IMG/VR virus record: IMGVR_UViG_3300012929_000007
Strand: one strand, 5' to 3'
Origin: a virus
DNA length: 48,447 bases
Position numbers and translations under genes: made by a program. Within the stretch, counting starts at the first letter, position 1; every line of letters starts with the position of its first letter. The notes beneath the pieces are model-generated. The model ran no database searches and had not been told where the DNA came from. It saw only the letters and a program-made list of their open reading frames with translations. Of the stretch, positions 7,532 to 46,349 are shown in pieces.

Positions 7532-7861
7532 ATGGCACGCGGAGCGATTCCGATCACGGTCTCGACCACCAAGGGCACGGTGCTTGCTACTCCTGTGGCA
7601 GGCGACCCCGTGAACTTCCACTACCTTCAGAATGACGGCACGGTACGCGTGCACGTCAAGAATACCAACTCCGGCAGCACGGCGCGTACGGTCACGATCA
7701 AGATCGCACAAACCGTGGACCAGCAGGCCGTGACCGACTTCACCGAGGCCATCGCGGCGGGGGTCACGCAGGTGTACGGCCCGTTCCCTGTCGCCATCTA
7801 CGGCACGCAGGTCAACATCAATGTGGACAACGCCGAACTAACCCTCGTGGCTGTCCAGTAA
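7532..7861 (+). CDS. Hypothetical structural protein (internal start of track ORF 7085..7861)
   Basis: The ATG at 7532 follows the stop of 7273..7530 by 1 nt. The upstream 150 codons of the long ORF are Arg/Pro/Ser-rich and overlap two better ORFs. Confidence 0.5.
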   Translation: MARGAIPITVSTTKGTVLATPVAGDPVNFHYLQNDGTVRVHVKNTNSGSTARTVTIKIAQTVDQQAVTDFTEAIAAGVTQVYGPFPVAIYGTQVNINVDNAELTLVAVQ

Positions 7862-9291: not shown

Positions 9292-9301
9292 CGTTTAAAC
9301 G
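9292..9301. repeat. YGTTTAAACR copy 2
   Basis: cGTTTAAACg directly abutting the ATG of 9302..9538. Confidence 0.95.
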
Positions 9302-25490: not shown

Positions 25491-25730
25491 ATGACACAGC
25501 CGATGCCCGTCAAGATTGTTGCCAACCCCAAACGACCGTACAAGGCGATATACACTATCGTGCTCGCGGCGCTGACTGCTGCGGCCGGTATCTGGGTTGG
25601 CAACGTGTACCTCACGGGAGCCCTGGCGCTCCTCACGGCGGTCGGCACGTACTTTGTGCCCAACCCGCTCATCACGGTTCCGGACAACTCGCCGGTCATC
25701 CTGTCGCACCCGGACAGTCCTAGCGTTTAA
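25491..25730 (+). CDS. Small 2-TM membrane protein (holin-like), last gene of the rightward arm
   Basis: ATG at 25491. TM segments are AIYTIVLAALTAAAGIWVG and LTGALALLTAVGTYFV. The stop TAA lies inside a GTTTAAAC copy. Confidence 0.5.
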   Translation: MTQPMPVKIVANPKRPYKAIYTIVLAALTAAAGIWVGNVYLTGALALLTAVGTYFVPNPLITVPDNSPVILSHPDSPSV

Positions 25731-25733
25731 ACA
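25724..25733. repeat. YGTTTAAACR copy 6
   Basis: cGTTTAAACa. It contains the stop TAA of 25491..25730, 12 nt before the terminator stem. Confidence 0.95.
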
Positions 25734-25743
25734 GGCAGGCAGC

Positions 25744-25784
25744 AAAACGCCCCGGCACCCATGTAGGGTTGTCCGGGGCGTTTC
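25744..25784. terminator. Bidirectional intrinsic terminator between the convergent arms
   Basis: AAACGCCCCGG (25745-25755) pairs with CCGGGGCGTTT (25773-25783), with an inner 4-bp ACCC/GGGT helix. An A-tract lies on one side and a T-tract on the other. Confidence 0.75.
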
Positions 25785-25786
25785 GG

Positions 25787-25796
25787 TGTTTAAACG
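25787..25796. repeat. YGTTTAAACR copy 7
   Basis: tGTTTAAACg, 4 nt after the terminator stem and 8 nt from the stop of the minus-strand gene 25804..26112. Confidence 0.95.
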
Positions 25797-35753: not shown

Positions 35754-36218
35754 TTAGAAGGGCGATTCGCCCGCGTCGTTCGCCGCCGTTTGGAGGTTGC
35801 TCAGCACGGCGGTGTGGTGGGACGCGTCCACGTACTGTCGCTGTCCGTACGTCACGGCTTGATTCGCGTCGTTTAGCTGAAGTAGCACGTGCGTTGCGTG
35901 CTTCGCGAGTGCGACGGGAACGGCAGCCTCGTACGCGTACTTCGCCTCGCGCAGACCTTCGCCGGTTTCGGTCCGGATGGCCGTGACGACCGAGATCTTG
36001 TGTGTGCGGGTCGTGTCCCACCCGACCGATTCGAGATCCGCCGTAACGAGCTGTCGCGCAGTCTCGGTAAGGTCGGTAGTCGCCTGGCGCACAAGCTCAA
36101 GGCGAATCGCATCCGCCCAATCGTTGATGTGCGCGGTGCTGTACTGCCCGAAAAGACTCTCAGCGACAGTCGCAAGATGTTGCTTGACCGCTGCCGCTTC
36201 AATGTAACCGTTCGGCAT
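35754..36218 (-). CDS. Hypothetical protein, 154 aa
   Basis: First ORF downstream of the 36.3-kb promoter-like element. Confidence 0.55.
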   Translation of the reverse strand: MPNGYIEAAAVKQHLATVAESLFGQYSTAHINDWADAIRLELVRQATTDLTETARQLVTADLESVGWDTTRTHKISVVTAIRTETGEGLREAKYAYEAAVPVALAKHATHVLLQLNDANQAVTYGQRQYVDASHHTAVLSNLQTAANDAGESPF

Positions 36219-36336: not shown

Positions 36337-38922
36337 CTAGTCGTCCGTCTCCCCGTGACTGTCGTCCGTGTTGTGCCCGGTAGCCGCGCGGTAGATCATC
36401 TCTGTGTACGCAACAGGTATCGGGTAGTACGTCCCCGTGATCGCACCCTTGCCCCGAACTTGCGTCGTCCAACGCTTACCGTCGCCGTCCGAAGTCTTGG
36501 GCGGGCTACCTAGCTTGACGCCCAACGCGGCAAGCTCAAGTTCGATCGCCCGACAGTCCGTCAAACTAGCTTCTCGGATGTCGCTGCGCGCGGGACCGCT
36601 TAGCCACGCTTCGGCGGTTTGCTGGGGCCATACCCAAAATTGACGGGTCTGTGCGTTGTAAAACACCGGGTACAGCCCGTGTGTGCCGTACAGACGTGTT
36701 AGCGGCTGACGTGCAGCGTTCCATACCCGAGGGATCACCTTGTTCACTACGATTGACGGCGATACTGCGAAGTCGAACGTTGCGGCCCACTCGTCAACAC
36801 GTTGTGTGTGTGCAGGGTCCCCGAGGATGGCCGATAGCACCCGTGCGCCACAACGCATGATGGCCACCATCTGGCCACGTCGGCTTGTTGATGTCGTCAG
36901 GGTCTCAACGTCGTTGAACACATCCGCGTGTCGTAGGGCTAGCTGCACGAGCGCACCTGCGTACTGTGTTAGATCTTCTTGGTGCGTTCGCTTGAAGAAC
37001 GCATCGACGTCATGCCACTGGCTGCGTGTCGGGTCTGTGGCGGACTTCCGCGTGTCCGCGCTAGGCATAGACACCGTGACGAACCTGTCAGCCATGGCCT
37101 TTTGGTCTGTGAATGTGATGCGCTCCGCGCTGTATACCGTTGACGCGTGCAAGTCGATGTCTTTACGCTCCTTAAACCCCGTGTCTCGGTCCTTTATCGA
37201 ATACGACCCCCCTGTGGCAGCTTGCCGAAATAGCTCTTGACATTGGGGGTCCATCTCAACGTCGTCAAACCAGTTGAACACGTTGGTTGATAGTTGGTAC
37301 GTGTCACGCGCTACCGCGTATGTTACTTTTCCCGGCTTCCGTCGGATGCCGCATAGTTGCCCAAGCATCCGAACGTACGTGCTCTTGCCACTTCCGGAGT
37401 GCGCTTCAATCGCGAGGTTCGGAGACTGCCACGAGTAGTGACCTTTGAGCAGCGTAACCATGAGGAACGCCCCGAATAGCGACATGGTGTGTTCGTCTTG
37501 GAACGTCAGGAACTCGCGCAGTACATCAACCGCACCGTCCTTAAACCCGTAGTTGAGTTGAGCGTCCTTGATCTTGAGATAGTTATTGGCCGGAGTAACA
37601 GAGTCCGTCCGGATAAGGCTGTCCGGCGTGACAAAAGCAGACAGCGCCGCGTCCCATCCGTACTTTTCAATGACGGTTTGGCGCTCGTGCGTCTGACTTT
37701 GCAGGAGGCATAACAGCCGTTCACCGTGGTTGCCTCGCTTGTCCGACGTCGGAGCAAGAAGTGACATCCCCCGGTCCACCAAGAACGCACGTAGTCGGGT
37801 GGTCGATGACAGCACCGAGCTTGGCAAGTCCACGTTCTCAAGGGTGGTCCCGTCCGCCTTGTGAAAGTCTACGACCCACACTTGGTGATCTCCGTAGTCG
37901 ACCAACGACTTAGCTGTCACGCGGAAGTTAGACCATGCCACGTATTCGAGCTTATCTCCGGACCCGACCGCTGTGGAGTACCCGGTTTCCCCCATCTCGT
38001 ATAACCAACCGCGCTCACTATCGGCCACGATAACTGCGATATCGGCAAGCCGCTTATCTTCCGTCTTGCGCCAGATACCCTCAAGCTTGGCAAGATCGGT
38101 GTCTGACAAGGGATCGGTCAGCGCGCCGCTCGTAGCCCGTAGCCACGCCCGGAACATCGGCAGGTCGCCAGGAAGCATTTTGGCCAGCCGTGACGCAATC
38201 TTTGCAAACGCGATGTTCCCTAGGTCCGGCGAATCCGGTTCGTCAGCCACCCGGGTAAGCAGGTCCACAACCTCACGATCAACGGTCTTCTCACCATCGA
38301 CCTTTCCCGCAAGACGCGTCTTGGTGCGCACGCGTGTCGGCACCATGTCGGCCGGAAACTCTTTGGGCTCAACCGGGTTGGCCACCTTGTACCGGGTGCC
38401 GTTGCTGTGCACGGACGGCGACAGCACCACGTAGCCTTTCCCTGCCGCGCGAGTATCCACACCGGGCCAGTAGGCGTTACCGGGTTGGGTCTGTTCAAGT
38501 TGCCGGGTGGGGTCGTTAGGCTGCCGGTACAGCAAGTGGTGCTTGTACGCGGTACTAGTTGACTGTTTAAACGTTACGGGGAATGTGACCTCCGGGTGCT
38601 CAGTGTCCACGTCGACCCACACATAACCGTCGTCCGGCGTGCCTCCCAGGTTGGCGTTTGGGTACTTGTCGAACCACCCCCGGATGACGTCCGCGTCCTT
38701 GGTGGCCTTGTCCCCCCACTTGAACCCGGATAGCGGCAGCTTGCCGACGTCCTTAGGGTCGCACGGGATGTCTTTCCACTCACCTTTTACTTGCCTCAGG
38801 TGCGTGTGCGGCCCCATGGCCGGAGAGCACAGGGGGAACACCCGGTGATAGAACTTTGCCCACCACAGCGCGTGCTCGACCATGGGTGACGTGACCGCTA
38901 GCGGCCGGACAAGCTTTGGCAT
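36337..38922 (-). CDS. Bifunctional primase-polymerase (Prim-Pol) / D5-type helicase
   Basis: 861 aa. The N-terminus has a Prim-Pol-like pattern (VFPLCSP...GKLPLSGFKW...YVWVDVDTEH), and the C-terminal half carries the P-loop AHSGSGKST. Confidence 0.8.
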   Translation of the reverse strand: MPKLVRPLAVTSPMVEHALWWAKFYHRVFPLCSPAMGPHTHLRQVKGEWKDIPCDPKDVGKLPLSGFKWGDKATKDADVIRGWFDKYPNANLGGTPDDGYVWVDVDTEHPEVTFPVTFKQSTSTAYKHHLLYRQPNDPTRQLEQTQPGNAYWPGVDTRAAGKGYVVLSPSVHSNGTRYKVANPVEPKEFPADMVPTRVRTKTRLAGKVDGEKTVDREVVDLLTRVADEPDSPDLGNIAFAKIASRLAKMLPGDLPMFRAWLRATSGALTDPLSDTDLAKLEGIWRKTEDKRLADIAVIVADSERGWLYEMGETGYSTAVGSGDKLEYVAWSNFRVTAKSLVDYGDHQVWVVDFHKADGTTLENVDLPSSVLSSTTRLRAFLVDRGMSLLAPTSDKRGNHGERLLCLLQSQTHERQTVIEKYGWDAALSAFVTPDSLIRTDSVTPANNYLKIKDAQLNYGFKDGAVDVLREFLTFQDEHTMSLFGAFLMVTLLKGHYSWQSPNLAIEAHSGSGKSTYVRMLGQLCGIRRKPGKVTYAVARDTYQLSTNVFNWFDDVEMDPQCQELFRQAATGGSYSIKDRDTGFKERKDIDLHASTVYSAERITFTDQKAMADRFVTVSMPSADTRKSATDPTRSQWHDVDAFFKRTHQEDLTQYAGALVQLALRHADVFNDVETLTTSTSRRGQMVAIMRCGARVLSAILGDPAHTQRVDEWAATFDFAVSPSIVVNKVIPRVWNAARQPLTRLYGTHGLYPVFYNAQTRQFWVWPQQTAEAWLSGPARSDIREASLTDCRAIELELAALGVKLGSPPKTSDGDGKRWTTQVRGKGAITGTYYPIPVAYTEMIYRAATGHNTDDSHGETDD
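38564..38573. repeat. YGTTTAAACR copy 12
   Basis: tGTTTAAACg in the Prim-Pol/helicase gene, read as F-K. Confidence 0.95.
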
Positions 38923-38931
38923 AGCGGACCC

Positions 38932-39207
38932 CTAGCGAATGACGATTGCGTCTGCCGGAACTTTGCTCGTGTACTGCTTATGCTCAAACGCGCGTGCGCA
39001 CATGTCCTCCAAACCTACGTGTTCGCCGCTGAGCGACGCTTCGTTGATCGTGATACCGCGCATGACATGTCCGATGTCGGTCGCGTAGATGCCCCATGCA
39101 ACAACGAGTTCCGCGCGCACGTGAGGGGCCTCGCTGACACGCTCATGAAAATCGTTGTCTACGGCGTACATGCCCGGATGCGCGGGGAACACCTGGATTA
39201 GCTTCAT
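38932..39207 (-). CDS. Hypothetical protein, 91 aa, first gene of the leftward arm
   Basis: Start MKLIQVF lies 3 nt downstream of a GTTTAAAC copy. The longer track ORF runs into the switch region. Confidence 0.5.
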   Translation of the reverse strand: MKLIQVFPAHPGMYAVDNDFHERVSEAPHVRAELVVAWGIYATDIGHVMRGITINEASLSGEHVGLEDMCARAFEHKQYTSKVPADAIVIR

Positions 39208-39209
39208 AG

Positions 39210-39219
39210 TGTTTAAACG
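39210..39219. repeat. YGTTTAAACR copy 13
   Basis: tGTTTAAACg at the left edge of the switch region, 3 nt upstream of the start of 38932..39207. It overlaps a plus-strand TAGTGT. Confidence 0.95.
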
Positions 39220-39259
39220 TCCCATCTGTCGTCTATGGGGAACCTGTGGCCTCACCCTA

Positions 39260-39689
39260 CCATCGTCTTACCGGTGCGTCGCGGATTCCGGGTAGTCCGG
39301 TGTACCCCAGGGTGCATCAACGGTTACATCAGAGGTTTTTGATCTTGAACCCGTAGTATCCACCATTATCTATGGCTATGTCAAGATCATCTACAGGGCC
39401 TGACGTACCCAGTGATGCACCCCCTGACGTACCCAAAGATGTACCCCAAAACCCCAGGTCAAGGGCCATGATGTAACTGATGTAACCGTATTTCGTCTTC
39501 TCATGTGTGTGTGAGGTGGTGGGAAGGTCGTTCGTGGGCTCGTGACAAACGTCCTTAGGGTAGGGGGCTTATTTTCCCCGGGAGGTTACGTCGTTACATC
39601 ACGCCACGATCTTGAGCTTACTTTGGTAAGATAGGAGTTGCCCGCCCCGACATGGCGCGGCCGAGACAACAGAACAGGGTGTTTAAACA
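39260..39689. promoter_or_regulatory. Divergent switch region, candidate replication origin, packed with short direct and inverted repeats
   Basis: About 430 bp non-coding with lower GC. At least 8 copies of GAYGTAMC/GKTACRTC are present, plus CCTGACGTACCCA twice, GATCTTGA three times, and the inverted pair GGTGCATCA/TGATGCACC. It is bounded by GTTTAAAC at 39211 and 39681. Confidence 0.6.
39680..39689. repeat. YGTTTAAACR copy 14
   Basis: tGTTTAAACa at the right edge of the switch region, abutting the GTG start at 39690. Confidence 0.95.
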
Positions 39690-39983
39690 GTGAATGAGCA
39701 AGCGCGCAGAGCTTACGCACTTAGCCTCATCTGGAATCTTGACACGGGGTACCACGCCGAATGTGTCAGCAAGGGGGTTACTCCGCGCGACATCGAACCG
39801 GACATCAACGGATGGTTACGAATCGGAAGGTACGCATCGGGCAAGGCAAGTGCGTGGGTGCAGGCAAACAAGCTACGTAAGAAGTGGAACAACCTACAGA
39901 CGGAGGTTCGCGGTGTTGAAGGGCAGGAGTGGAAAGCGGAGATTTGGGTCAAGCAGCACGACGGAGGGGGTACGCCCGAGTAG
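39690..39983 (+). CDS. Hypothetical protein, 97 aa, first gene of the rightward arm
   Basis: The GTG start lies 1 nt after GTTTAAACA. Its composition is more protein-like than the overlapping frame 39694..40185. Confidence 0.5.
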   Translation: MNEQARRAYALSLIWNLDTGYHAECVSKGVTPRDIEPDINGWLRIGRYASGKASAWVQANKLRKKWNNLQTEVRGVEGQEWKAEIWVKQHDGGGTPE

Positions 39984-40014
39984 TGGGGCGCGCCGCGTTC
40001 CGTTCATCGCGCAG

Positions 40015-40185
40015 ATGCCGGACGGGTACGACGCGCAAGACGCCATGGACTGGGTCGCCAGCATCAACGAGGCGATGATTGCCATCACGGCGGACGCGCA
40101 CCAAGAGGTTTTGTTCAAGCGCACGTGGCGCGTCATGGAAGAGCTTGGCCTAGGGCCGGAGACGGATGAGACCGACAATGCCTGA
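40015..40185 (+). CDS. Hypothetical acidic protein, 56 aa
   Basis: ATG at 40015 (MPDGYDAQDAMDW...). Its 3' end overlaps the polymerase start. Confidence 0.35.
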   Translation: MPDGYDAQDAMDWVASINEAMIAITADAHQEVLFKRTWRVMEELGLGPETDETDNA

Positions 40186-42427
40186 GATTGCTATCGGCAA
40201 CCCGGACGGCACCGTCACCATGCGGGCATGGTCTGCCTGCGAGCTGGGGGCGTGGCTGGCGGACAACGTCAAGCCCGTGGGCGGGGCGGTCAGCCTAGAT
40301 ACGGAGGCGTCCGGGCTGCACGTTGACGGCATGTGGGCCAGCGATGCCGCCAAGTGCTCGCCAGAGGCCCGTGTGAGCATCGTGAGCCTCGCATGGCACG
40401 AGTGGGCCAAGGACATCTGTCCGCCCTGCTACGGGGCAACGGTGGGCGTTCCTGTGGGCGGGGACCACGAGGACGGGTGCATGGGTGACGGGTCGTACGA
40501 GCGACTTGAGCGGCGGTCTGTGGCCATCCCGTTCGATCAGGGCATGATCGGCGGTAAGCAGGGCCGTTACATCAAGCGGGTCACCAAACGCACACCGGTG
40601 TTGGGGTGGCAGATCATTCCGCACACGGCCGAGTGCGTGTTCGTACATCGGCCGATGGAAGATCGGCACATCCCCCCGCAGACGTGCGTGTGTGCGCCGT
40701 GGAACTTCGGCGTGCAGGGGTGGCGAGACCTGTGTGAGTTCCTTGTCTCGCGCGTGGACTTTTTTAACGCGAAATACGACATGTGGATCATGCTCGCGGG
40801 GTTGCGCAACGGTGCCCACGCGGCGTGCGACCCCAGGTGCGTGGGGTGGCAGCACGCCAAGGGGTGTTTAAACGCAGGGGTTGACCTGAGCGGCCAGCTC
40901 GGGCGGGACGTCATGCTCTGGGAGTCCATCGTGGACCCTGTGCAGAAGGCCAGCCTCGACAACGTGGCGCACAAGTTCTTCGGCGAGCGCAAGGACAACG
41001 GCATCGAGGAAGGACTCAAGGCTAACGGCGTGGGGCTCGGCAAGCGGTATGACCTCGTGGCGTGGGATATCGCGGGCAAGTACGCGGCCAAGGACGCGGA
41101 CCTTACGTGTCGGGCGGTCATGCGGGAAGACAGCATGCGCGACATGGGCGAGATCGACTTCAAGGACTTTCCCATCATTGAGCGCGAGCACGAGAAGTGC
41201 TTGACGCTCTTCCGCATGGAGCAACGGGGCGTGGGGTTCGACGCGGACCTGTGCGCAGAACAGGCCGTGAAGATGCATGCGGAGGTGGCGACGCTTGTCG
41301 GTCAGCTTCCGTTCACGGCCAACAGCATTGCGGCAGGCAAGTACTTCTTTGGGTCGCCGGAGAGTGGCGGTCTCGGCATCATGCCCATCAAGCTCACGGA
41401 CGGGGGTGCGCCAAGCTGTGATGCTGAGGTGGTTGCGCGACTTACGCACGAGCAAGGTACGGCGGGGGAGGTGGCCAAGCTTTGGGCGCACATCTCTAAC
41501 ATGCAGAGCGTTTGTAGCAAGTGGTACGACGCGTGGCCGAACAGGGCGGGGCGGGATGGTCGTCTACGAACGAACTATTGGCAATGCTCGGTTGAGAGTG
41601 ATCGTGCAGACGGATACAGCGGGGGTGCCATCTCGGGTCGGCTTAGCGCGGACCGCGTACAACTTCAAGGTGTCCCGCAAGCGTGGCGCATTCCGCCGGA
41701 CGTTGTCGGCATCAAGAAACTTTTCCGTGCACGTGCAGGGCACGAGGTATGGGAGATCGACGCTAGTAATGCAGAGGTTCGTGTCGCTGCGTGGCTATCG
41801 CAGTGCCACGCGCTAGCTGCGGTCATCAACTCGGGCGTCAACGTGCACGATGCCAACACGAAGAACATCTTTGGCATCGACGAAACCGATCCACGGTGGA
41901 CGCAGATTCGCACGAGCATGAAGCGCGGCATTTTCGGCACGATCTACGCGTCGGGCGTACGGACGCTCAAGCAGCAGATCGACGCGGACCTTAAGGCGGA
42001 TATCCCCGAGCGCGACATCCGGCGCTTTCAGGATGAGCTGAACGCCGCGTATCCGGAACTCAAGCGGACCGCCAAAGCGTGTGAGCGCAAGGTGGACACG
42101 AACATCGGCGGACCGGGTTACGTGCGGCTGGTGTCGGGCCGACGTCGGGTGTTCGGCTGGGGTGAGAAGACGTACAAGGCGTTCAACGCGTGTGTGCAGG
42201 GTGGCGTGTCAGAGATGATGTCGGTCCTCATGCTTGAGGTGGACCGTACGTACCCCGGTATCTTGATCAACCAGGTGCATGACTCGCTTTGGCTTGAGAT
42301 CCCGAGCATCGTCGCGGAGTCGATCGTCAAGGACGTTCAGGCGATGGGCAAGGATATCTTCGAGCGCGCGTTCAGCACGAACGCGCTACACATCACGTTT
42401 GAGTTCGACGCAAAGCGGTTGGTGTGA
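40178..42427 (+). CDS. DNA polymerase I (family A) with a 3'-5' exonuclease domain
   Basis: Exo I-like SLDTEASG, motif A-like EIDASNAEVRV, motif B-like RTSMKRGIFGTIYASG and motif C-like QVHDSLWLE. The alternative start is 40166. Confidence 0.85.
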   Translation: MPEIAIGNPDGTVTMRAWSACELGAWLADNVKPVGGAVSLDTEASGLHVDGMWASDAAKCSPEARVSIVSLAWHEWAKDICPPCYGATVGVPVGGDHEDGCMGDGSYERLERRSVAIPFDQGMIGGKQGRYIKRVTKRTPVLGWQIIPHTAECVFVHRPMEDRHIPPQTCVCAPWNFGVQGWRDLCEFLVSRVDFFNAKYDMWIMLAGLRNGAHAACDPRCVGWQHAKGCLNAGVDLSGQLGRDVMLWESIVDPVQKASLDNVAHKFFGERKDNGIEEGLKANGVGLGKRYDLVAWDIAGKYAAKDADLTCRAVMREDSMRDMGEIDFKDFPIIEREHEKCLTLFRMEQRGVGFDADLCAEQAVKMHAEVATLVGQLPFTANSIAAGKYFFGSPESGGLGIMPIKLTDGGAPSCDAEVVARLTHEQGTAGEVAKLWAHISNMQSVCSKWYDAWPNRAGRDGRLRTNYWQCSVESDRADGYSGGAISGRLSADRVQLQGVPQAWRIPPDVVGIKKLFRARAGHEVWEIDASNAEVRVAAWLSQCHALAAVINSGVNVHDANTKNIFGIDETDPRWTQIRTSMKRGIFGTIYASGVRTLKQQIDADLKADIPERDIRRFQDELNAAYPELKRTAKACERKVDTNIGGPGYVRLVSGRRRVFGWGEKTYKAFNACVQGGVSEMMSVLMLEVDRTYPGILINQVHDSLWLEIPSIVAESIVKDVQAMGKDIFERAFSTNALHITFEFDAKRLV
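40865..40874. repeat. YGTTTAAACR copy 15
   Basis: tGTTTAAACg in the DNA polymerase gene, read as L-N. Confidence 0.95.
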
Positions 42428-42712: not shown

Positions 42713-43161
42713 ACCTTCCGGCGCGTTGGGTAAGCATCGATCCCGGGGATCGGCACGTCGGGTACGCCACATGGGACGAGGACACGTGTACGTCGGCCAT
42801 CGAGCTGACGCCGGAGACGTGTGTGGCAGCGCTTGAGGTGGGGCTATTGGGGCGCACGATCCATACGGTCGTGTGTGAGAAGTGGGCACTTTACGCGTGG
42901 AACGAAAAGAGCATGTCAGGTAACGAATTCCTGACTGCACAACTTATCGGGGTGATAAAGTACCTGTGTGGTCGCACGCAAGTCCCGTACATCGGGTACA
43001 ACGCGGGATCGCACAAGTCCATCTACAAGATGGGGTGGTACCTGGACATGACGCGTCGTGACCTCGCGCAGTTGCCGTGGTGGGGTTTCGGCGGGCATGC
43101 AAAGGACGCGTGGTGTATCGGTACGTGGCACGTCGCCAAGTCCGGCAAGGTACGGGGGTAG
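42709..43161 (+). CDS. RuvC-like Holliday junction resolvase
   Basis: N-terminus VSIDPGDRHVGYATWDE and a C-terminal acidic/His pattern (GGHAKDAW). Confidence 0.65.
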   Translation: MNLPARWVSIDPGDRHVGYATWDEDTCTSAIELTPETCVAALEVGLLGRTIHTVVCEKWALYAWNEKSMSGNEFLTAQLIGVIKYLCGRTQVPYIGYNAGSHKSIYKMGWYLDMTRRDLAQLPWWGFGGHAKDAWCIGTWHVAKSGKVRG

Positions 43162-43166
43162 GGGTC

Positions 43167-43739
43167 ATGTCAGGAGCGGTAGCGCCGTATGTACGGACCA
43201 ACGTCGTTGACCGGCTTTGGCGCGAGGGGTGGTTCATCAAGACCGCCAAGGGCATTTCGCGGAGTGTGCCAACGCTAAGCGCGGAAGACATGGCGGCTGA
43301 GTCGGTGTTCACGGCGATGCGGGCGGCTGAGTCTTGGCGTGAGGACGGTGTGCATCCGGTCGATTCGTGGGTCAAGTTTCGGGCACGCAACGAGATGCTT
43401 CGGCTGTGGCGTAAGCACTTGAACGAGCGCGCACGGTTTGCCGACGTGGACTTGACGTCGCCGGTCATCGACGGCGGTAACCCGCTTATCGACATGATCT
43501 GTCAGGCGCGGAGTGCTGAGGACCAAGCACGAGTCTTGGACTGGCAAAGCGTGGCGCGGGACGTGCACAAGGCGTTGGACACGCTCACAGTCAACCAACG
43601 CAGCGTGGCCGTGAGCCGCATGCACGCCAGGACACAACGCGCTCCGGGGCACGTGGCTGCACAAGGCAACTGGCATGGCGCGCGGTCCAAGCTCCGCAAC
43701 CGGCTGCAACACCTTAGGTGGATGGTGGTCCCCGCATGA
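43167..43739 (+). CDS. ECF-like sigma-70 family factor (putative)
   Basis: Region-2-like AEDMAAESVFTAMRAAESWRE...SWVKFRARNEMLRLWRK and region-4-like LDTLTVNQRSVAVSRMH...ARSKLRNRLQHLR. Confidence 0.45.
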   Translation: MSGAVAPYVRTNVVDRLWREGWFIKTAKGISRSVPTLSAEDMAAESVFTAMRAAESWREDGVHPVDSWVKFRARNEMLRLWRKHLNERARFADVDLTSPVIDGGNPLIDMICQARSAEDQARVLDWQSVARDVHKALDTLTVNQRSVAVSRMHARTQRAPGHVAAQGNWHGARSKLRNRLQHLRWMVVPA

Positions 43740-43776: not shown

Positions 43777-44334
43777 GTGAAGTTTCGACCCGATCAGCCG
43801 CTGTTCAAGGCTGACGCCTTCCGCATGCCCTTGTGGATTCACGCGCCCTTTGAGGTGTGCCGAGGGTTTGTCAAGTGGATGGCGGTAAGCCTGCATGCGG
43901 ACAACCCGCATAGCAACGTCATGCACAACGCGACGTTCACTCGGGGAGCGTCGGCGCCACACCGTAATGCGTTTTGGTCCGGCCGCCCGGTCGTCAAGGG
44001 GCCTAAGTGGCGCGTCATGGTGTGGCGCTGGGGCGTTGTGTTCTGTGTGCTGGCGTTCATCAAGTACGCGCCGTTAAGCGCGTGGTTGTGGGTTGCTCGG
44101 CGGTTGGGGGACACGCTCAAGCTTATCGGGGACGTCACGGTGTGGGCGTGGGCTAACTGGGGTTGGCTGCCGCTCATTCTGGTCAGCACTCTTGCGGGGG
44201 TGTGGGCGGCAACACATGCCGTGCGGGTGGGGGTGGCTGCGCTTAAAGAACGTCTGCGGAACGGCCATGAGCGTAGTGAATGGTACGTGTACGTGCTTGC
44301 TATTCGGGATCAGGTTCGGGGGTGGTTCGCGTGA
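43777..44334 (+). CDS. Membrane protein (putative)
   Basis: GTG start at 43777. Hydrophobic segments are WRWGVVFCVLAFIKYAPLSAWLWV and WGWLPLILVSTLAGVWAATHAV. Confidence 0.45.
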   Translation: MKFRPDQPLFKADAFRMPLWIHAPFEVCRGFVKWMAVSLHADNPHSNVMHNATFTRGASAPHRNAFWSGRPVVKGPKWRVMVWRWGVVFCVLAFIKYAPLSAWLWVARRLGDTLKLIGDVTVWAWANWGWLPLILVSTLAGVWAATHAVRVGVAALKERLRNGHERSEWYVYVLAIRDQVRGWFA

Positions 44335-46349
44335 TGATCGGCGCATTCGTGCTTGTCTGCTTGGGCTTGTTGCCGTGTGCGCTTTGGGCACTTGTGCAAG
44401 CCGCCGAGCACGCCCAACGTCGGGACAAGTGGATCCGACCCGCCGCTCAGGTGCTTATCGACAACTTGCCCAAGACGGGTACGGACGCTGTGGGGGTTGC
44501 CGCCAACATCGCGGCTGCACTGCGTACGCACCCGGAACGGTATGTGACGCTGCCCAAGGTGTGGCCGATCGACCCGACTGACCTCACGTCGCATGTCTTG
44601 GTCAAGCTGCCGATCAGTCCCGGCACCAATGAGAAGGTCAAAGATCGGATTGCGGGCGAGATCGGGTCGCGCCTTGGGTTTGACGGCGCACCGTCCGCTG
44701 AGTGGCTATACGTGGGCCACGGGGCGTTGGTCAAGCTGTATCCGACACCGTCATTCGGCGCGCCACGAACCGTGTACGACTACCTTCCGTTCGTGGAAGC
44801 CGAAGCGGGGAGTCCGCATCGCGTTGTGCTGGGTACGGATGTGTCGGGCGCACCGGTCGTGTACGACCATGTGACCATGGGGCCGCACATCAAGGCGTCA
44901 GCGGGGTCAGGTGGAGGTAAGAGTAACCTGTATCGATTTTTGGTGCCGCAGTACATTCGGAGTGGTGCGCAGGTCGTCATTTTGGACGTCAAGGGTGTGT
45001 CCATGCTTGACCTTGCGGTTGCTTTGGAGTTCCGCAACATCAAGTATTATAGCGAGGCTGAGACGTGCCACAACGCGTTTCAGGCCGTGTTCGCTGAGCT
45101 TGAGCGACGACGTAAGGAGGATATCTCGGCACGGCTTTCAGGTCGCGCGGCCGTTTTTGCCCCTTTGCACGTCATCATGGAAGAGGCCAATACCCTCATG
45201 GCCATGCTCAAGGACTTTTGGGAGTACGCCAAGGCGGCACACAGCGAGGCTGCGAGGCATTCTCCGGCCGTGCGTTCCATGCACTACAGCGTGTATATGG
45301 GGCGTGAGTTTGGTATCTATATCCATGTAATCTGCCAGCGGGCGGAGGCTGCGGTGTTTGGTGGCGGGGCGGTTCGCGAGAACTTCAACGCCGCGCTTAT
45401 GAGCAAGTGGGACATGCGCACGTGGAAGATGTTGGCGCACGGGCATCGGTACATTCCGCATCCGATGGACTGGAGTTGGTACCTTGTCACGTCAACGGCT
45501 GTGGTGCGGTATATGCCACCACACTTGCAAGAGTCGGATGCATGCCTTCTTGCCGACCTGGATAACGTGTCTGACTTGGCTTGGTCGGCGGAGCTTGAGG
45601 CTGTGCCAGACGTGCGCGTTACGTCGGTGCAAGGGTACCTACCGCAAGGGGTGAATGAGATAGCAGGCTTGCCACACATTGAGCTAGCCATGACGGTAAC
45701 GCTTAAGGAAGCACACAGCATGCTTGCCAAGCACGGGCACAACGTGCCGTTAACGGTGCTTGAGCAGTGGCAGAAGGGGGCACGTAGCGCGGAGTCCAAG
45801 GGGTATGCACCGTGGCCGAGTGCCGTTGGCGCTAACGGGCGTACCAAGGTGTACGCACGCACGGACATTTTGGCGTGGCTGACGAGTGGCCCGGAACCGT
45901 CTGGCAAGTTTTGGGACGGTGTGTTTGTCGACATCCGGCGTGCTGACTTGGCGATTAAGCCGCATGTCATCTACGGGCTTAGGGTGGAGACGTACGGCGA
46001 TACGGTCGGGTATATCGGGCAGACGCATCAAGCGCTTGAGACGCGTAGTGAGCAGCACGCGGAGACACAGTATTGGGGGGATCTCATCACCGATACGGTT
46101 GAGATATTCTCGGGCGATATGACGTGTATCGAGGCGCGTGAGATCGAGGGGCTGCTGACCGATACGCTTGCGTGCGTGCTTAATCGGCCGGTACCTCAGG
46201 TGGGCGCGGATGTGCGTCCTCGGTGGAACCCTGCGGCTGAGACCGTTGAGGGTCTGCGCGACGCACGGCACGCACGAGACATCGAAAGTGGTAGGCCGTT
46301 GTTCAGCAGTCCAATGGACCGGTCACGGGGGGTGTCCGGACGGGGTTAA
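44334..46349 (+). CDS. FtsK/SpoIIIE-like DNA translocase with a C-terminal GIY-YIG-like module
   Basis: TGATG overlap with the upstream gene and an N-terminal TM segment. Walker A is SAGSGGGKS and Walker B-like is LHVIMEEA. The C-terminal sequence is VIYGLRVETYGDTVGYIGQTHQALETRSEQH. Confidence 0.65.
   Translation: MIGAFVLVCLGLLPCALWALVQAAEHAQRRDKWIRPAAQVLIDNLPKTGTDAVGVAANIAAALRTHPERYVTLPKVWPIDPTDLTSHVLVKLPISPGTNEKVKDRIAGEIGSRLGFDGAPSAEWLYVGHGALVKLYPTPSFGAPRTVYDYLPFVEAEAGSPHRVVLGTDVSGAPVVYDHVTMGPHIKASAGSGGGKSNLYRFLVPQYIRSGAQVVILDVKGVSMLDLAVALEFRNIKYYSEAETCHNAFQAVFAELERRRKEDISARLSGRAAVFAPLHVIMEEANTLMAMLKDFWEYAKAAHSEAARHSPAVRSMHYSVYMGREFGIYIHVICQRAEAAVFGGGAVRENFNAALMSKWDMRTWKMLAHGHRYIPHPMDWSWYLVTSTAVVRYMPPHLQESDACLLADLDNVSDLAWSAELEAVPDVRVTSVQGYLPQGVNEIAGLPHIELAMTVTLKEAHSMLAKHGHNVPLTVLEQWQKGARSAESKGYAPWPSAVGANGRTKVYARTDILAWLTSGPEPSGKFWDGVFVDIRRADLAIKPHVIYGLRVETYGDTVGYIGQTHQALETRSEQHAETQYWGDLITDTVEIFSGDMTCIEAREIEGLLTDTLACVLNRPVPQVGADVRPRWNPAAETVEGLRDARHARDIESGRPLFSSPMDRSRGVSGRG

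Follow-up and report, generated by a model that had tools for sequence, protein, structure and literature searches.

A repeat-dense gap between two diverging units

The window analysed here is the virus record IMGVR_UViG_3300012929_000007 at its full length (48,447 nucleotides), a complete, circularly permuted, siphovirus-like phage genome of ~48.4 kb with 60% GC, referred to below as this phage. We describe a non-coding gap in it that separates two diverging transcription units and carries a dense array of short repeats. The window start falls within the large-terminase gene (Terminase_6C at 16-663). The terminase opens a plus-strand block that runs to ~25.7 kb through portal, capsid, a 2273-aa open reading frame (ORF) and endolysin. 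A minus-strand block extends from 39207 down to ~26.1 kb with the Prim-Pol/DUF927 helicase, a PD-(D/E)XK nuclease and an AAA_24 ATPase, and a plus-strand block from 39690 holds a family-A DNA polymerase, a RuvC-like resolvase and an extracytoplasmic-function (ECF)-like sigma factor. The gap is the sole point of transcription divergence in the genome.

The preliminary description of this DNA had placed a divergent, lower-GC, non-coding gap of ~430 bp between the Prim-Pol/helicase and the DNA polymerase. The flanking genes are indeed a Prim-Pol/DUF927 helicase at 36337-38922 on the minus strand and a family-A DNA polymerase at 40166-42427 on the plus strand, and the gap is both non-coding and divergent. 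Its size had to be revised, since the alignment of homologues puts the leftward start at ATG 39207 and not at GTG 39255. The GC content is lower, as described: 0.52 in 39201-39600 against about 0.61, and 0.52-0.53 for the whole gap against 0.61 for the genome. A 46-aa ORF within the gap is called in none of the relatives considered below, and an Rfam scan of 38800-40000 gave 0 matches. Near and distant searches of the gap DNA against GenBank phages returned nothing, and there is no close relative among GenBank phages. Single-protein scans of viral contigs also returned nothing, and the scan of genome contigs gave no prophage relative. Because the distant homologues of the polymerase, portal and Prim-Pol (24-32% identity) come almost all from actinobacteriophages, the host is likely actinobacterial. 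A homologous Prim-Pol/helicase is encoded by 155 GenBank phages.

Every repeat listed in the preliminary description was found in its place. The 8-mer GAYGTAMC has 14 matches in the window, eight of them in 39323-39600, against 6.1 expected per 48 kb, and 0 of 100 shuffles reach 14. The tandem pair at 39470-39486 opposes the pair at 39585-39600; CCTGACGTACCCA is present twice, 24 nt apart (39399-39411 and 39423-39435); GGTGCATCA and TGATGCACC form an inverted repeat (39311-39319 and 39412-39420); and GATCTTGA/TCAAGATC stands at 39341, 39381 and 39608, with a window total of 9 against 0.74 expected. A better family word is the 9-mer TGAYGYAMC, which has 8 of its 11 exact window copies in the gap. 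The stretch 39311-39601 has ten such sites, eight exact and two that are one letter off (AGATGTACC at 39437 and, on the minus strand, CGACGTAAC at 39585-39593). With TGAYGYAMC as the family word, GGTGCATCA and TGATGCACC therefore become members of the same family. The 6-nt core GAYGYA occurs 22.8 times per kb within the gap and 2.4 times per kb elsewhere (binomial p = 8e-8). Sites at 39401, 39413, 39425 and 39437 follow one another every 12 nt, as a phased four-unit array. In this phage the 3' half of the word is ACC in the four-site array and AAC in the tandem pairs.

When all 300-bp windows were scanned without bias and with correction for background, 39301-39600 came first for 7-mers and second for 5- and 6-mers. 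Its competitors fall within the repetitive 2273-aa ORF, and among non-coding stretches the gap has the strongest word cluster. The raw count of exact 6-mers does not single the region out; the background-corrected scan alone does so. No second repeat cluster was found elsewhere in the window.

Site positions and site words in related phages

A protein search with the Prim-Pol/helicase gave five relatives at 48-64% identity, four of which are L001-L004, and one distant match. We compared six metagenomic relatives (L001-L004, L007 and L008), whose Prim-Pol/helicases are 47-64% identical to that of this phage; together with this phage they are the seven phages referred to below. L001-L004, L008 and the metagenomic fragment L007 each have a gap of 480-550 bp in the same place. 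The preliminary description had left the conservation of the repeats to an alignment with related phages: their positions are kept within ~1 nt in the seven phages, and their spelling is not kept.

The shared order is a left cluster, four direct sites, CAGGTC, a forward pair, a spacer of ~100 bp, a reverse pair and a TGGTAAGMT box. CAGGTC is invariant in the 5-way alignment and is present in L007 and L008 too, and site offsets were counted from this anchor to the start of the site core. Slots −41, −29/−30, −17, +15 and +24 are occupied in 7 of 7 phages. Slot −53 is found in this phage, L002, L003 and L007, and has moved to −62 or −47 in L001, L004 and L008. The reverse tandem pair, with its 8-nt spacing, lies at +122 to +153 from the anchor in all seven. 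The left cluster consists of 2-4 sites, mostly reverse, at −114 to −210; in the relatives an inverted pair and one more reverse site stand at −130 to −190.

The word that fills these slots is GA(Y)G(Y)A in this phage, L001 and L002, (G/A)ATGYA in L007, TTG(Y)A in L003 and L004, and TTGYN in L008. The change of word hits every slot at once, and the 3' flank is phage-specific too (AMC, AGG, AAG etc.). The helicase N-terminus of L007 is 67-71% identical to that of the TTGYA clade and 46-49% identical to that of the clade of this phage. Because the L007 helicase groups with the TTGYA clade yet keeps the ATGYA word, the A-to-T change is, on this grouping, a single derived event across about a dozen sites. 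The word varies between phages, but there is one switch on the tree, and its co-variation with a given protein domain is inseparable from phylogeny. Fixed geometry together with a concerted change of word is, in our reading, the signature of sites read by one co-evolving phage-encoded protein. We conclude from the sequence comparison that the array is a real, conserved and functional repeat array, and a putative protein-binding one.

By nearest-neighbour stability, the gap of each phage holds the easiest-melting 30-mer of its locus. In every phage the phased array is flanked by two easy-melting zones, one at −135 to −90 and the other at 0 to +45 or further. The weakest 30-mer of this phage is 39365-39394 in the left zone (fraction weaker 0.000 across the whole window), and overlaps the TCAAGATCA arm and the inter-arm spacer of the inverted repeat TGATCTTGA/TCAAGATCA. 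In the relatives the weakest segment falls on the forward pair or within the spacer. The spacer GC is below that of the genome in all phages (0.39-0.49 against 0.52-0.57 in the relatives). The hairpin potential of the spacer was not significant (z +0.1 to −2.9), with one strand of one phage alone being notable, and the spacer as a hairpin or priming signal was dropped for this reason. A candidate DnaA box, GTATCCACC at 39356-39364, was dropped as well, as it is not conserved in the relatives. GATC is not enriched in the gap (p = 0.35), and GATC clustering of the Dam-SeqA type is not significant in any phage (p = 0.05-0.35); GATC-containing words return at similar offsets in the relatives.

Arrays of this kind also occur in three cultured actinophages, Keanu, Jera and PinkFriday, whose helicases are 27-32% identical. 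Their genes are co-directional, and each has an array of its own word in the non-coding gap that adjoins the helicase gene. In Streptomyces phage Keanu (L009 5914-6233) all 9 of 9 copies of GTTACCCC fall within 320 bp, where 0.15 are expected; the array lies directly downstream of the primase/polymerase/helicase gene, and tandem pairs are opposed over an AT-rich stretch. Microbacterium phage Jera (L010 5367-5639) has 8 copies of TGCTAGA against 0.32 expected; between Prim-Pol and PolA four copies recur at 11-nt phase and are flanked by inverted copies, and a pair stands just before the Prim-Pol start (L010 2420-2438). In Arthrobacter phage PinkFriday (L012 4776-5074) two GTAAC copies in tandem are followed by a T-run, CATACGTA, inverted GTTAC copies and a TGGTAGAGT box. 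When each locus was scanned for word clusters without bias, the top window fell in the helicase-adjoining gap of L001, L002, Keanu, Jera and PinkFriday. Relative to the helicase gene, the array is upstream in this phage and the six relatives, and downstream in the three cultured phages. The GenBank records of Keanu, Jera and PinkFriday annotate neither an origin nor the arrays, and we regard these arrays as candidate origins.

A further box stands just past the forward pair in the relatives. L001-L004 and L008 carry TCACGTATAGAG after a T-run, ~+45 to +60 from the anchor, with CGTGTAG in L007 and CATACGTA in PinkFriday (L012 4904-4912) as counterparts. This phage is without the T-run and the TCACGTATAGAG box and reads TCTCATGTGTGTG at 39500-39512. 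The TCACGTATAGAG box could be a priming or unwinding signal.

Table 1 Features of the gap and its flanks. Positions are those of the window. Column Strand denotes plus (+), minus (-) or no strand (.). Column Details denotes the basis or the component sites. Promoter elements and the roles of proteins are predictions.
Feature	Positions	Strand	Details
Whole non-coding gap between two diverging units	39208..39689	.	482 bp; leftward ATG 39207, rightward GTG 39690
Left site cluster	39298..39331	-	Degenerate forward cGGTGTACC 39298-39306; reverse GGTGCATCA 39311-39319 and GTTACATCA 39323-39331
Perfect 9-bp inverted repeat TGATCTTGA/TCAAGATCA	39340..39389	.	Arms 32 nt apart; repeat search
Phased four direct iterons TGACGTACC, TGATGCACC, TGACGTACC, AGATGTACC	39401..39445	+	12-nt period
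Invariant CCAGGTCA anchor box, between phased array and forward pair	39454..39461	+	Only copy in window
Forward tandem iteron pair TGATGTAAC TGATGTAAC	39469..39486	+	9-nt spacing; in second easy-melting zone
Spacer between facing pairs, candidate unwinding region	39487..39584	.	98 bp; GC 0.55 vs 0.61
Reverse tandem iteron pair GTTACGTCG, GTTACATCA, opposing the forward pair	39585..39601	-	8-nt spacing
Third GATCTTGA copy, between reverse pair and −10-like box	39608..39615	+	Repeat search
Rightward promoter-like extended −10 TGGTAAGAT	39624..39632	+	Only exact copy in window
Tentative leftward −10 with extended TG, TGGTAGGGT	39254..39262	-	Read from sequence; alternative CGGTAAGAC 39267-39275
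GTTTAAAC copy, 3 nt before leftward start codon	39211..39218	.	Genome-wide family, not region-specific
GTTTAAAC copy, 1 nt before rightward start codon	39681..39688	.	Genome-wide family; placed alike in L002 and L003
Prim-Pol + DUF927 helicase + C-terminal domain, proposed initiator	36337..38922	-	Pfam
First rightward gene, 97 aa, alternative candidate binder	39690..39983	+	Conserved in five phages

Candidate binding proteins, predicted promoters and other words

The Prim-Pol/helicase is the sole protein common to all array-bearing loci, and its gene always adjoins the array; the gap starts 286 bp from the helicase start codon in this phage and abuts it in L002. The Pfam matches of the protein to Prim-Pol (1.2e-19) and to DUF927 (4.1e-7) are both above the curated cut-off, and DUF927 (PF06048) covers residues 333-519 and scores 30.4 bits, with the gathering cut-off at 22.6. 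The Walker A motif is kept as GSGKS/T in each of six homologues and reads GSGKST in this phage. Comparison of the Prim-Pol/helicase with solved structures gave no sequence-level match. The C-terminal ~150-160 residues were modelled with a predicted local distance difference test score (pLDDT) of 74 as three helices and then a beta-hairpin (residues 67-135 of the segment).

Five phages share the first rightward protein (97 aa). It has no family or structure match, and no homologue in any GenBank phage, Keanu, Jera and PinkFriday included. The small leftward protein was rejected as the binder, as L002 is without that gene and keeps the full array. The first genes to the left and right of the gap were searched for a helix-turn-helix or other DNA-binding domain, and none was detected. 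Two other proteins have weak matches of their own. The small protein at 35754-36218 on the minus strand, just downstream of the helicase, weakly matches the C-terminal domain of ribosomal protein L7/L12, and this match recurs in the homologues of L001, L002 and L004. The 689-aa protein at 44280-46349 on the plus strand, in the rightward unit, has weak P-loop matches of the FtsK/HerA/TraC type, below curated cut-offs.

On the rightward side, the GGTAAGMT core of TGGTAAGAT is kept in 7 of 7 phages, and TGGTAAGAT precedes the start codon of the first rightward gene by ~55 nt. It resembles an extended −10 that lacks a −35, as is common among actinobacterial promoters, and we take it as a predicted rightward promoter element, with a predicted transcription start at about 39639. 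The distance from the reverse pair to the TGGTAAGAT-type box is 25-26 nt in this phage, L001 and L002 and 37-39 nt in the other clade. Since this difference is about one helical turn, it hints that a bound protein and RNA polymerase may interact on one face of the helix. On the leftward side, TGGTAGGGT is a weaker counterpart that may serve the leftward unit, with a predicted start at about 39247, and TGnTAnnnT words stand at the matching place in L001 and L004. The iterons overlap none of the −10-like boxes of these predicted promoters and end at least 25 nt upstream of them.

Several other promoter and switch candidates were set aside. The ECF-type promoter GGGAAC-N16-TAGTGT (39185-39212) of the preliminary description is the antisense of the first codons of the leftward gene (V-F-P), and GGGAAC is absent in the relatives. 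A sigma-70 consensus scan gave one weak leftward match, no better than in shuffles, and was not used. CAGGTCA read as a −35 (TTGACC, minus strand) has no −10 at a usable distance. A forward site TGTAAC combined with CGTATAG as an ECF-type promoter was kept as a weak idea only, with a spacing of 12-18 nt and the box absent in this phage. The ORFs scanned contain no repressor and no integrase; with no flanking helix-turn-helix protein and no overlap of the iterons with the −10-like boxes, a lambda-type or lysogeny switch is not supported. The ECF-like sigma gene lies at 43077-43739 on the plus strand, downstream of the polymerase (Sigma70_r2 at 29 bits against a cut-off of 24, and a weak TIGR02937 match), and L002 carries the same gene.

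The GTTTAAAC copies, which had been taken to bound the region, belong to a genome-wide motif. The palindrome GTTTAAAC is the most frequent 8-mer of the genome, with 16 copies against 0.37 expected (4428, 9293, 11806, 18296, 23419, 25725, 25788, 27938, 29117, 30135, 34826, 38565, 39211, 39681, 40866 and 47748). About 10 of the 16 are non-coding and lie 1-50 nt before start codons, and the remainder fall within large genes. The arrangement GGAGC-GTTTAAAC-G-ATG is found at 9293 and 18296, and GTTTAAAC also precedes the first genes of both divergent units. In the relatives, L002 has 11 copies in 14.5 kb, L003 has 4, L004 has 2 and L001 has 0. Cluster A mycobacteriophages carry multi-copy 'stoperator' sites, and GTTTAAAC is reminiscent of these or of a signal at the RNA level. 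Two copies flank a hairpin with an 11-bp stem, AAACGCCCCGG ... CCGGGGCGTTT (25725-25795), where the plus and minus gene blocks converge. We regard this hairpin as a probable bidirectional terminator; its loop was too long for the simple terminator scan to call it.

GATCTTGA/TCAAGATC stands at 7698, 12210, 16731, 17148, 37570, 39341, 39381, 39608 and 47499 in the window. The six copies outside the gap are all coding, five of them reading TCAAGATC on the sense strand, and the three gap copies are non-coding. Codon usage may explain the copies outside the gap.

Origin reading, alternatives and known systems

We think it probable, with some reserve, that the gap 39208-39689 serves as a replication origin of the iteron type, that the Prim-Pol/DUF927 initiator-helicase encoded beside it reads the iterons, and that this origin is set between two early promoters. 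This reading is supported by the clustering of the sites, the conservation of their layout, their association with the helicase gene, the DUF927 family of that helicase, the easy melting of the DNA and the weakened case for rival binders. From the sites, their clustering, their positional conservation and the helicase association we infer the identity of the binder, initiation at this place and any effect on transcription. The preliminary description had proposed a candidate origin and master regulatory hub. The origin has gained comparative support through the layout and the helicase association, and the hub or switch part we only infer. Its comparison to the architecture of origins and multi-operator switches likewise stands as far as a conserved iteron-type array is concerned, and a lysogeny-type switch is unsupported.

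According to this origin reading, the Prim-Pol/DUF927 protein would be self-loading initiator, helicase and primase in one, and would recognise the 9-bp TGAYGYAMC iterons. The four-site array and the adjoining forward pair would nucleate an oligomer. The forward pair (39469-39486) and the reverse pair (39585-39601), facing each other across the ~100-bp spacer, would place two helicase rings in opposite orientations. The DNA would then open in one of the two easy-melting zones, the Prim-Pol would prime and the neighbouring family-A polymerase would extend. Because the sites lie ~40-60 nt upstream of both −10-like boxes, their occupancy probably tunes early transcription, and divergent transcription would in turn supply negative supercoiling to the origin.

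A number of points weigh against an origin read by this helicase. Neither PDB nor BFVD yielded a significant fold match for the C-terminal domain, and sequence searches of Pfam and PDB gave none either, so the winged-helix reader expected from the Reps of Staphylococcus aureus pathogenicity islands (SaPIs) is not demonstrated; the model of the full-length helicase has a pLDDT of 48 and is unusable. The spacer GC of this phage is just mildly lower (0.55 against 0.61), and its weakest duplex lies to the left of the array. The position of the array, between promoters and upstream of the initiator gene, differs from that of SaPI origins, which are downstream of rep. The GC-skew minimum or turning point at ~39.2 kb falls in the same place as the switch of gene orientation; as a sign of an origin it is confounded with gene orientation and proves nothing. 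The word-cluster scan found no array in Curtobacterium phage Parvaparticeps, a distant relative, and exact-word scans gave no clear cluster call for the degenerate TTGYA phages. The one-helical-turn shift between the reverse pair and the rightward box suits a role in transcription no less than one in replication.

This last point leads to the alternative of a purely transcriptional operator array, in which a phage regulator (the 97-aa protein or a later product) would act on both early promoters and the origin would be elsewhere or free of sites. We hold this alternative to be unlikely. It agrees with the gap being the sole divergence point and having a conserved −10-like box, with the pair-to-box distances of 25-26 and 37-39 nt, which suggest coupling to RNA polymerase, with the Jera tandem pair just upstream of the Prim-Pol start, and with the conservation of the 97-aa protein in five phages. 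However, 10-13 sites with a phased array and pairs facing each other across ~100 bp exceed the needs of known operators, and the sites do not overlap the −10-like boxes. The first genes to the left and right show no helix-turn-helix or DNA-binding domain, Keanu, Jera and PinkFriday have arrays yet lack a homologue of the 97-aa protein, and the small leftward gene is absent from L002.

The gap could also be a composite of two binders. The helicase would use the facing pairs as the core of the origin, and a second protein would control transcription or origin firing through the phased array of four sites, through the left cluster, or through CAGGTCA and the GATCTTGA words. Such a division would account for the conserved elements that are not iterons, namely the invariant CAGGTC, the GATCTTGA inverted repeat and the TCACGTATAGAG box of the relatives, and for the 3' half of the word in this phage being ACC in the array and AAC in the tandem pairs. 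However, the 5' core switches from A to T in all slots together (L003, L004 and L008), which points to a single reader of the core, and no second DNA-binding protein was identified. We consider two binders quite improbable. It is very improbable that the array is a site for partition (centromere-like) or for packaging, or that its words cluster by chance: short direct-repeat arrays do occur at parS-type and pac/cos sites, but the ORFs scanned contain no ParA/ParB or integrase, the terminase genes lie at the opposite end of the map, and layout conservation at the nucleotide level in seven phages excludes chance.

A wider form of the origin reading is conceivable but somewhat doubtful. It would make the gap an example of a composite origin-promoter module general to actinobacteriophages with Prim-Pol/DUF927 helicases, in which one primase-helicase reads phage-specific words of 6-9 nt, loads head-to-head and, from helically phased positions upstream of both early promoters, sets divergent early transcription. 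If this were true, the firing of replication would be coupled to early gene expression, and the A-to-T word switch would be a natural specificity swap that defines replication incompatibility groups of co-infecting phages. Origins are unmapped for almost all actinobacteriophages, the SEA-PHAGES collections included, and none was described in the literature searched. The locus offers a concrete, testable candidate for an origin, since its word and slots are defined and a candidate initiator is named, and the same approach found arrays in Streptomyces, Microbacterium and Arthrobacter phages, so it appears to generalise. The concerted word switch of sister lineages offers a natural experiment on the evolution of initiator-origin specificity, and a mapped origin would aid the construction of phage-derived replicons for actinobacteria.

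The kind of element is an expected one, iterons beside an initiator gene, and resembles the origins of SaPIs, P4 and plasmids; what is new is that it has not yet been described for this phage group. SaPI Reps are self-loading initiator-helicases in which a C-terminal winged helix reads iterons of 5-6 nt, and SaPI origins have 6-12 iterons, of which two or more flank an AT-rich centre on either side and point in opposite directions (PMC9371898). SaPI5 has a primase fused to Rep, PriRep5 (PMC9371898), and Cch is of the DUF927 family and related to the Rep of SaPIbov1 (PMC7581432). This locus is closely similar in its logic: in its short, apparently element-specific iterons (5-6 nt there, a 6-nt core in a 9-nt word here) and in their copy number (6-12 and 10-13). 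The 10-11 sites in 39298-39601 beside the initiator-helicase gene compare with the at least six clustered, non-coding repeats of 5-9 nt that define a SaPI Rep-ori. At least two opposed iterons flank a lower-GC centre, here in 7 of 7 phages, with a weak GC drop in this phage. The putative origin adjoins the gene of its presumed initiator, which is a helicase-primase fusion as in PriRep5 of SaPI5 or a DUF927 protein as in SaPIbov1 Rep/Cch. It differs in that the array is upstream of that gene between divergent promoters and not directly downstream as with rep, and in adding the phased four-site array and the invariant CAGGTC box. The primase here is an AEP-type (archaeo-eukaryotic primase) Prim-Pol, a C-terminal winged helix is not demonstrable, and the host element is an autonomous ~48-kb siphovirus-like genome with a probable actinobacterial host, whereas a SaPI is a satellite.

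The alpha protein of satellite phage P4 unites primase, helicase and a C-terminal origin-binding domain in one polypeptide, which recognises short octamers repeated in the origin. Besides ori, P4 requires crr, another cluster of repeats ~4.5 kb away. The likeness of this locus to P4 ori/crr lies in a single primase-helicase polypeptide with short origin repeats; the differences are that there is no second cluster here, that the primase type is another and that no sequence similarity is detectable. In SV40 and papillomaviruses the origin lies in the control region between divergent units, inverted short words position two helicase hexamers, and the initiator regulates promoters. The analogy is drawn in PMC7581432 too. 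These are eukaryotic viruses with superfamily 3 (SF3) helicases and an N-terminal origin-binding domain, and the likeness is a functional analogy without homology. Iteron plasmids of the F, P1 and pPS10 type have an autoregulated Rep (reviewed in PMC4980987). This locus shares with them and with lambda direct repeats near helical phase beside an easily melted segment, and with the plasmids inverted copies near the initiator promoter, which serve autoregulation there. The iterons of these plasmids and of lambda are 17-22 bp long and are read by winged-helix proteins, Rep or O, which recruit host DnaB, and those of lambda lie inside the O gene. The words here are 9 bp long and non-coding, and their presumed reader would itself be the helicase.

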